61,587 nucleotides of DNA from Chiloscyllium plagiosum (Eukaryota), in the NCBI RefSeq assembly GCF_004010195.1, contig NC_057719.1, positions 6,151,372 through 6,212,958 on the forward strand, written 5' to 3'. The notes below the pieces were generated by a model, which worked only from the letters and a program-made list of their open reading frames with translations, had not been told where the DNA came from and made no database searches. Shown here one piece after another: positions 4,735 to 61,587 of this stretch (positions within the stretch are counted from its first letter, which is position 1; each line of letters begins with the position of its first letter). A program made the position numbers and the translations under genes.

Positions 4735-5757
4735 ATTTGAAGGTGCCGGTGTTGGACTAAGGTGGGCAAAGTTAAAACTCACACAACACCAGGTTATAGT
4801 CCAACAGGTTTAACTGGAAGCACTAGCTTTCTGAGCGCTGCTCCTTCATCAGGTAGTTGTGGAGTATACAATTGTAAGACAGAATTTATAGCTAAAGTTT
4901 AGTGTGATGTAACTGAAATTATACATTGAAAAATACCTTGATTGTTTGTTAAGTCTCTCATCTGTTTGAATGACCATGTTAGTTTCACTTCTTTCTCATG
5001 TAAATCACAAAACCTTTTTTAAAAAGTTACATTCTCAGGTTAACTGTAACAATAGGTGTCAGCCAGATAAGATGTTGAAGGTGTTAGCCCCCTGTGTTCC
5101 CTGTCTGTGCCATAAAGTTTAGACTGATTCTAATCTAAGAAAATGAGATAACAGAGTCTTACATGGATTCATGCAGTTTTTGAGCAAAGTACAATGTAAC
5201 TCTGCAAGTACAAATTCACCCCATAAACGTATATGTGTATGTGTGCATGTGGGTTTTTGTGTGTGTGTGCGCATGTGTGGGGGTGTGTGAGTGTGTGTGT
5301 GTGAGTGTCTGCATGCATGTGTGTGTGTGTGTGTGTGTGTGCGCGCATGTGAGTTTGTGTGTGTGCGCACGCTTGTGTTTTTGTGTGTGTGTGTGTGCAT
5401 GTGGGTGCCTGTATGTATGTGCGCATGTGGGTTTGTGTGTGTGTGTGCGCATGTGGGTTTGTGTGTGTGTGCGCACATGTGGATTTGTGTGAGTGTGTGT
5501 GTGTGAGTGTGTGTGTGAGCGTGTGTGTGTGTGAGTGTGTATGTGTGTCTGCGTGCATGTGGGTGGGTGTGTGTGTGTGTGTGTGTGCACATGTGAGTTT
5601 GTGTGTGTGTGTGCATGTGGGTACGTGTGTGTGTGCGCATGTGGGTTTGTGTGTGAGTGTGTGTGTGGGTGTGTGTATGTGTGCACATGTGGATTTGTGT
5701 GTGTGTGTGGGCGCATGTGGGTTTGTGTGTGTGTATGTGTGTATGTGTGTGTGTGTG
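4735..5757 (-). mobile_element. Penelope-like element end with hammerhead core and long TG/CA-rich tract (5232-5757)
   Basis: Minus strand CTGATGAAGGAGCAGCGCTCAGAAAGC at 4826-4852, followed by a degenerate (TG)n tract. Confidence 0.55.
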
Positions 5758-5759
5758 AC

Positions 5760-5898
5760 TAACAGCAGTACTTCACCGGAGGCTCACTGATGATGTTACC
5801 TGGTATGGTGACGAAACATCTGAAAATGAACCTTGCAGCTCAGCGAGCAAACCTACATCCAAAACCTCAACCTGAGCTACAAATCTTCTCAAAACTCG
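5760..5898 (+). mobile_element. Penelope pLTR fragment with hammerhead core
   Basis: CTGATGA-TGTTACC-TGGTAT-GGTGAC-GAAAC; downstream sequence homologous to 6480-6562 and to the reverse complement of 40670-40770. Confidence 0.75.
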
Positions 5899-6044
5899 TT
5901 TGTATCCACATTGCTACTATCCCCTTTTCACTATGACCTGTGGCTTTTCTCAAAAGTCTGTTGTGTGGCACTATATGATACGCCTTCTGTAAATCCATGT
6001 TCACAACATGAACAGCATTACCCTCAACCAACCTTTCTATTCCC

Positions 6045-6975
6045 ACCATGGCAGGCAAAGTTGAACCCCAGTGAAGGTAAGGTGATGCACTTTGGAAGAA
6101 GGAACAAGACAAGGGAATACTCAGTGAATGGCAGGACACTAGGAAGCTCAGAGGAACAGAGGGTTCTTGGCTTGTTTGTCCACAGATCTCTGCAGGTCGC
6201 TGGTCAGGTTAATAAGTGGGGAAAGAAGGCTTGAGGGATCCTTGCCTTTATCAGTCAGGACATAAATTATAAGACAGGCTAAGCAAAGATATGCCAGAGA
6301 ATTCCTAGAGGCCTGGCACTCCAACCACAACGCCATAAACAAACACATAGATCTAGGTGCCATCTATCAACTCCTCAGAAAACGAACAGGAAATGACACC
6401 ACCACAAACCCCAGGAACCCCATCCAGGAGAAAGACATAAATAGAAAGCAGGAGACAACAGCTTCGCTTCACGTGGAGGTCGCCACTGATGATGTTACCT
6501 CGCCAGGTAATGAAACATCTGGATATGAAACCTACAGCTCAGCGAGCAAACCTACACCCTAAAGTGGGGAGATTATTTTAGACACAGGCCACAGCTGGAG
6601 TACGATGTGCAATTTTGTTCAATACACTATGGGAAGAATATGATTGCACTGGAGGGGGTTCAGAGGAGATTGACCAGGATATTGCCTGGGATGGAGCACT
6701 TCAGCGACGGAGAGAAGGCTGAGAGGGGACCTGATCGAGGTGAATAAGATTACGAAGGATGACTAGAAAGAAGCTCTTCCCCTCAGCTGAAGGACAAAGA
6801 ACACAGGATTTAGAGGGGAATGAGGAATATTTATTTCATCCAGAGGATGGTGGGGATCCAAGCACTGCCTTAAAGGGTGATTGAGGCCTTTAAAAGGTAC
6901 TTGGATGAGCACTTGAAGTGTGAAAGCATTCAAGGCTGTGGGACTAGTGTAGGCCGCAGTGTATGTTTTGATGGG
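6045..6975 (+). mobile_element. CR1 LINE 3' region interrupted by a Penelope fragment
   Basis: WQAKLNPSEGKVMHFGRRN...VLGLFVHRSL motif. Confidence 0.8.
6275..6562 (+). mobile_element. Penelope 3' end (GIY-YIG C-terminus + pLTR with hammerhead core)
   Basis: Translation AKQRYAREFLEAWHSNHNAINKHIDL; CTGATGA...GAAAC at 6486-6516. Confidence 0.8.
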
Positions 6976-7379
6976 AATGACTCTTCTGTACTGTTTGGTT
7001 CTTTGATTCTACCTTTTCGAAAAAACTTGTGTAAGTTAGTTAAGCACAATTCCCTCCTCAGAAATCCATTCTGCCACTTTGTAATCACTTTTTCCACGTG
7101 ATTTCTAATCCAATTCTGAATAATTGTTTCTGGAAGTTTACACACCATGAAGTTAAATTGACCGGTCTGTAATTGCTGGGATTACTATTATAACATTTCT
7201 TGAGTAAGGCCGGAATGTCTTCAATTCTCCAGCCATTTGGCTGATGTTGGATCGTTCCTTGGAAAGGTATGGAAAAATAAAGAGCATGAAAGCATGGGAA
7301 GGGTTAAAACATCAAGACCACTGGTGATCTGTTACAAGGGGTCTGTGGAATGCTACACTAGCCAAAAGGTCACTCTGGC

Positions 7380-58847: not shown

Positions 58848-58854
58848 ATATATA
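58848..58854 (-). promoter_or_regulatory. TATA box (TATATAT)
   Basis: Isolated TATATATG inside GC-rich DNA about 140 bp upstream of the ATG; implies a TSS near 58810-58825. Confidence 0.7.
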
Positions 58855-58891
58855 CCGTGTATCCTTCCGCCGGCAGCCGCGGAAAGACGGT

Positions 58892-58899
58892 TGACGTAA
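58892..58899. promoter_or_regulatory. CRE/ATF-like site TGACGTAA
   Basis: One mismatch to TGACGTCA, about 40 bp upstream of the TATA box. Confidence 0.5.
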
Positions 58900-59799
58900 G
58901 GGGGGAGGGGAAGGTGTGCTGAGGTCCGTGGCGGAGGGAGGGAGTGTCAAGTGGTTCCTTCACTCCCCCCCCTCCCTTCCCCATCAATCCTCCTCCACCT
59001 TCCTCCTTGCGTCCCAACCTGGACTTCCAGTATTTTTCCGTTCGCGCTGCCGATTGCGTTTTGCGCACGGATCTACATCGCCGAGGCGGATGGTTACGGT
59101 TTGGTTGGGAGGGACGGAGGTGTGAGAGGGGCTCGGTTGCCTTGTTGGCGCGGGACGTGGGGGAGGGGGGGGACGGAAGGACGGTTGGTTTTTGAAGAAG
59201 GGGGAGGGGCGCCTCGCGCGCCCTCTCTCTGTGTCTCGGGGACGTGTGTCGGCTTGGAGGAGGGAGTCAAGGGGACGTCCATCAGCTTTGTCTCGCCGTC
59301 GGCGATTGGTGCAGGCGCACCTGCAATGAGGGAGCGGATGAGACCCGGCCTGCCATTGGCCGCCGCGTACCTGCAATGCGTCAACTCCGCGGCCGGGCCG
59401 ATGGCGGCGGCGTCGCTGGAAACACCGCTACCGGGGCCTGGTCCAGGTGGAAGCTGCTAATCGACACTGAGAGGCAAACGCCGAAGAAGGCAGGCAGCCA
59501 GATAACGCCTTGTTACTTCATGCAAAGTGTTCATCTCAATACCTATAGAAATGAGCAGAATTTGGTCCTTTGAGCCATTCAGTGTAATCTTGGTTAATAC
59601 TCCATGGCACTGCCATTTGTCCAACTTTCTCCCCATATCTTTAAAATCTATATAATACATTTCTTGAATCTGTTTAGTGACGATCTCGAACCCTTTCTCC
59701 AGTTGAGATTTCAATGCTCCTTGAGTAAAGAATGTAAATGTCTTAATGGACCCCCGCCCCAGCCGTCCAAGTGAATATAGACATAGGATAAAGCAGATG

Positions 59800-61084
59800 A
59801 ATAGGAGGCTGCAAAAGACGGGAGTGGTCTAGGTTCCTGGGACTGGCCCTTGGGTCCATAGCATCTGTACAGGTTGGAAGGGTTGCAGCTGAACAAAGCT
59901 GGGGATGAGTCGCATTTGGAGTGTTTTGGGAGGGCTTTAAACTAGTTTGACAGGGGAATCAAGAGAGAATATTGGAGATTATCAGCGTTTGCAGAATATT
60001 TAGGTTGGTACCAGAATAGAGAATATTACATTGATGGGTGAAAGTTGGAGTAAGGGAGAAAGAAATGAAGTCTAAACTCGAGTTAATGTGTATATAAATG
60101 CATCAAATACTGTAAATAAGATTGGGGAGTAACAGATGTCAGGTGCCACATGGAAATATGATGTTGTGGTAATAACAGATGCTGCTCTGTGAAGGGCATG
60201 ATTTATTGTTAAATATACCAGGCTATTAGTTGTTTAGGAAAGGAGATGGGGTAGCAGTATTGGTTAAGGAGTCCTGACAAAAGAAGATTTCTTGGATGGT
60301 TGAACGACAGAATCAGTTTGGCTACAGCTTAGTAATAAAAAGGGTAGAAGTACGTTGCTATGTAGTCTACAGACCATGAAGTAGTGCAAAGGGTGTAGAG
60401 GAACGTATCTGCAAGGAATTTACAGAAAAATGCCAACATTATGGAGTAATTACAATAGGGACTTCAGTTTCCCAAATATAGACTCGGACAATCTTAGTGT
60501 GAGGGGCAAATGTTCCCAGATTGTGTTCAGGTGAGTTCCCTACAGCAGTATGTGTGCAGTCCAACAAGAAAGGATATGTTGTCAGACCTAGTCCTTGGAA
60601 ATTAAGTGTGTCACGTGACAGTGGGAGAACATTTAGAGAAGTGATAATTCAATCATAAGATTCATGATGGTGATAGGCATTGACAGGCAACAATACAGAG
60701 TAGCAAAAATCATTTGGCACAAAGCTGACTTCATTGGGGCAAAAACAGGATTAACTGGAACAAGAGGTTAGCAGGAAGAATGGTAATTGAACAATAGGCT
60801 ACCTTCAAAGAGCAGATGGCTTAGGTGCAATCAAGTTATATTGTATCAAATGGGAAAGGTTAACATATCCAAACATAAACATATCCAAAGTTCCCTGCAT
60901 TGCAACGGAAATAGAAATCAACATTAGAAAGAAAGTGTGTGGATAAGAGGTCTAAGGGAGAAAATATAGTTGAGAACCAAGAAGAATATTGAATGTTAAG
61001 ACGTAAGGTGAAAATAACAAATAAAAGCAACAAGGAGGAATTAGAAATAAAAGATTAGCAGCTAACGTAAAGGAGAATCCCAAA
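59800..61084 (+). mobile_element. CR1 LINE (ORF1 end / endonuclease) upstream of the promoter
   Basis: WKYDVVVIT, GDGVAVLVKE, TESVWLQLSNKKG. Confidence 0.75.
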
Positions 61085-61587
61085 GACAAAAGCAGAAATT
61101 GTTGGAAATGCTCAGCATGTCTGGCAGCATCTGTGGAGAGAAATCAAAGTTAATGTTTCAGGTTGAGTGACCCTCAGAATTGATGATAGTTAGGAAATGT
61201 CAGTTTATATGCGGAAGATAGGGTAGGGGGAGAAGGTAAGGACTGAACAATAGATGGGGATAGAGCCCAAAGACAGAGCAGCATCTGTTATTACCACAAC
61301 ATCATATTTCCATGTGGCACCTGACATATGTTAATCCCCAATCTTATTTACAGTATTTTATGCATTTATATAGTTGTACATAGAAAAGAGTGGATAGCGA
61401 TCTAGGTAAAAACAATGACTGCAGATGCTGGAAACCAGATTCTGGATTAGTGGTGCTGGAAGAGCACAGCAGTTCAGGCAGCATCTGAGGTTTAGCAGTA
61501 AGATCAACGTTTCGGCAAAAACCCTTCATCAGGAATAAAGACAGAGAACCTGAAGCGTGGAGAGATAAGCTAGAGGAGGGTGGGGGT
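61085..61587 (-). mobile_element. Two PLE-type termini (61085-61272 and 61405-61587)
   Basis: CTGCAGATGCTGG...CAGGCAGCATC terminus; minus-strand CTGATGAAGGGTTTTGCCGAAACG at 61508-61531. Confidence 0.7.

Follow-up and report, generated by a model that had tools for sequence, protein, structure and literature searches.

A stretch of 61,587 nucleotides from the shark Chiloscyllium plagiosum (contig NC_057719.1, positions 6,151,372 to 6,212,958 of the forward strand; called the window here) holds a dozen sites that resemble the core of the hammerhead ribozyme. The locus raises the questions of what carries these motifs, whether they still work, and why so many of them lie together. We conclude that they are very probably minimal type I hammerheads in the pseudo-long terminal repeats (pLTRs) that Penelope-like elements (PLEs) carry, a placement demonstrated for one family (A) and likely for two others (C and D), and that the copies are likely inert, decaying by-products of retrotransposition.

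A sequence-only reading of the window had listed about 10 cores from at least three PLE families. The letters that it described were verified at all 12 listed sites; at 61509(-) the core is present, and its coordinate was short by one base, the core start being 61532. Comparison of the window with itself separated three unrelated lineages, A, C, and D, as had been proposed. Family A1 comprises the copies at 5787, 6486, 40734, and 42310; family A2 those at 36866 and 37280 with a remnant at 42686-42733; family C those at 32342, 32371, 12338, 41856, and 61509, together with a deleted core (2737) and pieces at 8722, 25983, and 61099 that have no core; family D is the copy at 4828 alone (Table 1). 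The number of working units fared less well. Because 32342/32371, 36866/37280, and 40734/42310 are inverted arms, with one insertion per pair, the 12 sites amount to nine insertions, and of the seven sites taken for cores, only 37280 is complete. Both 12338 and 41856, described as damaged or partial, lack CUGANGA entirely. Two remnants were absent from that list: 2737(+), which has CUGAUGA with the remaining core deleted, and 42686-42733(-), which begins at GAAA.

We scanned the window with hammerhead descriptors and compared the counts with those from 200 block-wise (local) dinucleotide shuffles, a test in which the copies, being repeats, are not independent trials. The loose pattern CTGANGA..GAAA was only twofold enriched (10 observed versus 4.9 expected; 4 of 200 shuffles were as high). 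A core with a stem II of at least 3 bp occurred five times (0.6 expected) and a core with a stem I of at least 2 bp seven times (0.76 expected), and neither count was reached in any of the 200 shuffles. The combined descriptor (stem II of at least 3 bp, self-pairing 15.2/16.2, U16.1 and H17, and stem I of at least 2 bp) was matched once versus 0.005 expected, with 1 of 200 shuffles as high. The shuffle comparison rules out a chance origin of the motif set; five loose rows of the scan (20302, 41027, 10235, and longer spans from 5787 and 40764) were set aside as chance matches or duplicates. As the sequence-only reading had supposed, annotation passes these motifs by: none of the 13 matches of an Rfam scan of the window at E<=1 was a hammerhead, the matches being palindrome-derived microRNA (miRNA)-like hairpins and chance matches.

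The link to PLEs is made by family A. The decayed A1 open reading frame (ORF) at 40862-42265 matched RVT_1 (E=5e-4) and, by tblastn, shark PLE proteins (E 1e-41 to 1e-46), the closest relatives being predicted zebra and bamboo shark proteins (53-36%). These relatives have RVT_1 and weak GIY-YIG Pfam matches, the latter below the cut-off, and the GIY-YIG motif is visible in the window at 41836-42015. The shark PLE proteins also map by tblastn to 6257-6556, 36884-37353, and 5759-5872, and they cover the DNA immediately upstream of the cores at 6486, 36866, and 37280. Therefore, family A cores lie directly behind the endonuclease C terminus, in the pLTR. Family A thus has a single ORF with reverse transcriptase (RT) and C-terminal GIY-YIG domains upstream of a pLTR, the arrangement of endonuclease-containing (EN+) PLEs. 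Its relatives show no obvious Cys linker by eye, and the labels Penelope/Poseidon versus Neptune are tentative. The sole complete hammerhead, 37280(+), belongs to this family and has a 3-bp stem I, CUGAGGA, an extra U, a stem II of 3+3 bp with a bulge, GAAA, ACGU, and C17, with a predicted cut after 37313. It sits in the insertion at 36800-37353, the arms of which consist of endonuclease C terminus and pLTR, with the longer tail end solely on the minus arm.

Inverted 5'-truncated copies and a tail of 30 to 40 bp are hallmarks of PLE insertions (PMC8557442). In the window, 5' truncation, an inverted 5' copy, and such a tail at one end were found for families A and C. There are four fold-back insertions, and both families have inverted 5'-truncated arms as well as two classes of 3' end about 30 to 37 bp apart, of which the longer occurs on a single arm. 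The 32242-32456 stretch is a single family C insertion with 83-bp arms that are 99% complementary, and the family C copy at 41856 is nested within the 40734/42310 element. There, the fragment at 41855-41935 is flanked by a target duplication (9/10) at an AT-rich site, and contig joints from other genomic copies skip it. All fragments together make up about 4.2 kb, or 7% of called bases (the ends are approximate). Five copies have a 5' truncation inside the hammerhead, upstream of the cut site (at 12361, 32367, 32371, 41855, and 42733); these points could stem from stalled RT at stem II, or they may just follow the distribution of lengths. The fold-back insertions at 36800-37353, 32242-32456, and 12241-12413 would give long double-stranded RNA.

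Coding traces of family C are confined to a 34-amino-acid stub (2464-2565), which we take to be a PLE endonuclease end. A 40-amino-acid search with this stub gave no match; its one relative is an 81-amino-acid whale shark prediction (81%, E=2e-4). Given the stub, the inverted arms, and the tail ends, family C is probably a PLE. The Penelope-like origin that had been claimed for the whole set is thus demonstrated by ORF remnants for family A and probable for family C; family D is a putative PLE.

Table 1. Hammerhead copies, associated fragments, and host intron in the window
Feature	Positions	Strand	Remarks
Family C fragment	2464..2834	+	ORF C-terminal stub (2464-2565), pLTR, CUGAUGA at 2737; stem II-to-cut-site deleted
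Family D hammerhead, single copy	4821..4855	-	core present, palindrome AGCU, A17, 3-bp stem I; no G10.1-C11.1 pair
Family A1 hammerhead, short pLTR fragment (~5761-5890)	5784..5823	+	G16.2>A
Family A1 hammerhead, end of 6257-6563 fragment including ORF C terminus	6483..6522	+	C11.1>T, G16.2>A
Family C hammerhead, 3' half only	12338..12361	-	no CUGANGA; in fold-back insertion 12241-12413
Family C hammerhead	32338..32367	-	core, stem II, ACGU, C17 intact; truncated at position 2.1, stem I 1 bp
Family C hammerhead, inverted twin of 32342	32371..32396	+	3-nt core deletion, G16.2>A
Calmodulin last intron	35624..47214	-	holds 5 of 12 listed sites and the 42686 remnant
Single family A2 insertion	36800..37353	.	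two inverted 5'-truncated copies, 93% over 263 bp
Family A2 hammerhead, inverted twin of 37280	36863..36900	-	G12>A, 2-nt stem II deletion
Family A2 minimal hammerhead, sole complete copy	37277..37316	+	complete; predicted cut after 37313; antisense to calmodulin
Family A1 hammerhead, inverted 5' copy (~40673-40870) of same insertion as 42310	40727..40768	-	C11.1>A, G16.2>T, G17
Family A1 decayed PLE ORF	40862..42265	+	RT motifs, thumb, GIY-YIG; many frameshifts/stops
Family C fragment	41855..41935	+	no CUGANGA, G12>A; nested in GIY-YIG motif of A1 ORF
Family A1 hammerhead, 3' pLTR of the 40862..42265 ORF	42306..42347	+	G8>A, C11.1>T, C15.2>T
Family A2 remnant beginning at G12	42686..42733	-	98% to 37306-37353
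Family C hammerhead, second subfamily	61504..61534	-	core present, stem II 2 bp, stem I 2 bp, U17

The copies themselves are mostly broken. CUGANGA, the extra base, a stem II with the G10.1-C11.1 pair, and GAAA are complete in 37280, 32342, and 5787. The ACGU palindrome is gone from 5787 and 6486, and the G10.1-C11.1 pair from 4828 and 40734, the latter of which additionally has G17. Other than 37280 and 32342, every copy is missing at least one of these features: G8, G12, H17, stem II, the palindrome, the G10.1-C11.1 pair, or its entire 5' core. One of the 12 listed copies is therefore intact, so that motif counts overstate working ribozymes about tenfold at this locus. The 32342 copy, with a predicted cut after 32339, is nearly complete; it had been suggested for cleavage assays and lacks the native 5' strand of stem I. 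Nine of 14 core substitutions are CpG transitions, and three more fall at the same CpGs, in a tally from the copy alignments that took family states from sibling copies or reads and for which we infer the family D state. Such a pattern is that of neutral decay. In DNA, the two core CpGs (C11.1-G12 and C15.2-G16.2) likely mutate fast, which would kill the core and make the ribozyme short-lived where DNA is methylated. In predicted folds, the cores of 37280 and 32342 are buried by pairing with their inverted twins. Unconstrained folding of the 37280 motif as a monomer or dimer, which does not model the core, showed none of the hammerhead fold except stem II.

The consensus in print, CUGANGAH G..C GAAA N-palindrome-N U H (PMC4209133, supplemental Fig. 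S3), accommodates families A, C, and D alike, and the earlier description of them as PLE-type minimal type I hammerheads was borne out. Family majorities retain the core. Of stem III there is just a palindrome (A15.1-N-N-U16.1, followed by H17), which reads ACGU for A2 and C, AGCU for D, and, with the reads taken into account, ACGU again for A1. Stem I measures 3 to 4 bp in family A, 3 bp in D, and only 2 bp in C. The stems of family A covary: in its six copies, 82% of cells are paired versus 28 to 45% when the strands are slid, pair 3 of stem I is CG three times, GC twice, and UA once (paired in six of six), and pair 3 of stem II is CG, UA, or UG. The covariation score of 0.215 was matched by 1 of 500 shuffles. 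Loss of core conservation from the family consensus or an absence of stem covariation would have refuted the sequence-only reading, and neither was observed.

These compensatory changes in stems I and II bear on whether the motifs are ribozymes at all. The core could instead be kept, even in active elements, because it overlaps a start codon, a promoter, or a protein-binding site. In family A, the ATG formed by A9-U-G10.1 opens a frame and is retained in five of six copies, and a 6-nt difference between A1 and A2, ahead of a common peptide, keeps the frame; likely, A9-U-G10.1 doubles as the ORF start codon. Insertion by the anole element PAc in vitro was unimpaired by core mutants (PMC11167929), and Naiad PLEs thrive without canonical hammerheads (PMC8557442). 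However, the same core occurs in three lineages with unrelated stems, two of which have no ATG, and published dimers and PAc do cleave, if weakly or with protein help (PMC4209133, PMC11167929). Together with the covariation, these points leave this alternative with almost no credence, less than any other that we considered. Beside the ATG, we observed that the first ~36 residues of a predicted epaulette shark RP9 isoform (XP_060705803.1) resemble the frame from the family A core ATG (5793-5900; 70% identity); the start of this protein is possibly an exonized first exon from a PLE pLTR or a gene-model artifact.

Several points weigh against reading all three families as decayed PLE hammerheads. 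Two of five covariation measures were not above shuffles (241/500 and 151/500), and the covariation comes from six related sequences and two pairs, located where the DNA probably has a coding role as well. In family C, the copy that keeps both native strands, 61509, has a stem I of only 2 bp, the coding trace is the 34-amino-acid stub alone, and the whale shark relative of that stub has no Pfam match. Around the family D copy at 4828, we found no RT or other ORF and no element ends. Among the positions listed for read majorities in the alignments described below, C11.1 of A1 (42335) was absent. Finally, from sequence, we infer both the ancestral state of the single D copy and the inertness of the copies.

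If these are PLE hammerheads, their density may follow from how such elements insert. Reverse transcription would start ~70 to 110 nt downstream of the core and usually stop early, and because of the early stop, even the shortest insertions would carry the core or its 3' half, which would explain the density. The copies run through the predicted cut site, which makes it likely that RNA templates had not been cut. For cleavage after N17 in an active element, the ribozyme would have to pair with a second copy via ACGU or AGCU or be helped by the element's protein.

Sequencing runs X15 (contigs), X1, and X16 were aligned to 41700-42420 (721 bp) at 80% likeness; a fourth run, X17, contributed 0 reads. 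The reads restored lost core bases: G8 (42315) in 79% of depth in X15 and 97% in X1, C15.2 (42340) in 59% and 82%, and G12 of family C (41869) in 73% (X15), 91% (X1), and 73% (X16). They also restored the extra U at the 42310 copy, and loose ends ahead of 41855 finish in the CUGAWG that is missing from the window copy. In X15, 54,493 contig pieces matched the 721-bp stretch, and depth peaked on the family C fragment, at a sum of ~1.6e7 versus up to 1.2e6 on the A1 ORF, although summed contig depth is not copy number. Thus, the hammerhead-bearing population in this genome is likely very large, as had been suspected, and mostly dead. By extrapolation from this one window, with its one intact copy and seven CUGANGA..GAAA cores per 60 kb, a genome that we take to be several gigabases in size would hold 10^4 to 10^5 or more.

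The depth of family C also bears on whether C and D spread by themselves, as nonautonomous units resembling retrozymes or short interspersed elements that move as self-cut, possibly circular RNA with PLE proteins supplied in trans. Family C is the deepest part of the aligned stretch, its copies are short and 93 to 99% alike, and a recent preprint derives non-LTR (long terminal repeat) retrozymes from PLE pLTRs, one chondrichthyan included (bioRxiv 10.64898/2026.07.22.740005). In addition, one X15 contig joint among those listed (depth 430.8) runs from 41934, with five letters added, back to 41877, the base directly following the predicted family C cut (N17 is at 41876). Such a joint could record a self-cut RNA whose end was copied. 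Slippage or misalignment would account for it equally well, as the native continuation is similar to what begins at 41877. Against such spread, no direct tandem copies of any hammerhead unit were among the repeats found in the window, and no examined copy begins at the cut site: seven of nine aligned family C pieces, and likewise the arms at 12362 and 61099, have their start at other points within the core or past it, and the other two pieces keep upstream sequence. The 2464-2834 copy, moreover, carries an ORF stub. No pile-up of read starts or ends was seen among the 2,716 reads of X16, which lie mostly on the family C piece in both orientations; this is a weak test, since a fragmented poly(A) single-cell RNA library shows cut ends poorly. 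We therefore regard self-cut spread of C and D as distinctly improbable and prefer decayed PLE insertions for these families as well. Somewhat less unlikely, though still doubtful, is the narrower proposal that the family C hammerhead cuts in vivo and that the genome keeps head-to-tail junctions resuming at the first post-cut base. Were it true, counts of cut-site junctions over possibly 10^5 young copies would bear directly on the role of the hammerhead in PLE transposition. Work in vitro on the anole element left copying from self-cut ends open (PMC11167929), and their high copy number would suit carpet-shark genomes to asking statistically whether PLE RNAs are copied from such ends. Metagenome contigs scanned with an exact pattern for family D and another for family C gave 0 loci.

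The motif itself is of a kind already in print, and the shark families are additions to it. A 2014 survey described minimal hammerheads of PLEs, ~4,000 in coelacanth and ~9,000 in Xenopus, including opposite-strand pairs, and reported that single motifs do not cleave and that dimers cleave weakly (PMC4209133). The surprise implied in the sequence-only reading is not supported, as thousands of such motifs per vertebrate genome had been published. Our copies share with that set the type I topology, the extra base after A9, G10.1-C11.1, a short stem I, a stem III that is a palindrome only, several families per genome, a predominance of single truncated copies, numbers in the thousands per vertebrate genome, and opposite-strand pairs 100 to 700 bp apart. 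They differ in that family C has a stem I of ~2 bp and in that their density, by extrapolation, may exceed 4,000 to 9,000 per genome. The chordate rows of Fig. S3 of that survey include no shark, nor does the part of its supplement text that was searched, and a search of literature listings, with subscription papers and some supplements (which may list shark counts) outside its reach, returned no report on shark PLE hammerheads. The present families thus extend the 2014 catalogue with shark members that Rfam-based annotation misses.

A close counterpart of family A is PAc, a Poseidon element from Anolis carolinensis (Frangieh et al. 2024, PMC11167929). Its ORF begins at stem II, its cleavage depends on its own protein, its main substrate is uncut RNA, and its tail arises from two internal RT starts. 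Features that are likely shared are the ORF start at stem II, two RT start sites that give the tail, AT-rich targets, and uncut RNA as the main template; PAc is cut 26 nt downstream of the ORF start, and N17 of family A is the 28th base from the ATG. Whereas PAc has been assayed as an intact element, the window copies are broken, and the clade placement of family A is tentative. Non-LTR retrozymes likewise have type I hammerheads related to PLE pLTRs and occur in one chondrichthyan, but they are tandem repeats with a hammerhead in each unit, whereas the copies here are dispersed or inverted and form no tandem array (bioRxiv 10.64898/2026.07.22.740005).

Much of the window is occupied by a calmodulin gene (33600-59500, minus strand), with five coding exons mapped, near 55668-55698, at 53411-53554, 48429-48535, and 47215-47350, and from 35623 downward. 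Both exons tested gave EF-hand Pfam matches, AATAAA signals cluster at 34797, 33752, and 33596, and the likely promoter is GC-rich at ~58 to 59.5 kb. The location of five listed sites in the last intron raises the alternative that one or more copies were recruited for cutting or folding of calmodulin transcripts, either in that intron or in read-through RNA past the poly(A) signals. The 32342(-) copy is in the sense orientation ~1.2 kb past the AATAAA at 33596, and the fold-back arms would make long double-stranded RNA. However, every sense remnant in the intron lacks an essential base: G12 is A in 36866, position 17 is G in 40734, and the 5' core is missing from 42686. The one intact core, 37280(+), lies antisense, and 32342 has a stem I of 1 bp within an 83-bp hairpin. 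We give this co-option very little credence, and the intronic copies are better read as ordinary PLE insertions. Selection against sense-strand cores in the intron was considered and rejected, since the intron offers just three sense remnants, too small a number in a set where 1 of 12 copies is intact. The 36800-37353 fold-back lies in the calmodulin pre-mRNA and could be a substrate for editing or for small RNAs.

The remaining repeats of the window include two long palindromes, 25874-25998 and 17251-17351, which have miRNA-like hairpin scores below the Rfam cut-offs; the first adjoins a family C piece. An inverted repeat of 100 bp (60091-60190 and 61273-61372; 97% complementary, 1.1 kb apart) is unrelated to the hammerheads. 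Minisatellites lie at 613-957, 7285-8900, 10845-11350, and 26930-28600, with units of 23, 19, 22, and 22 to 23 bp, respectively, and two of them adjoin the 500-N assembly gaps at 10345-10844 and 28614-29113.

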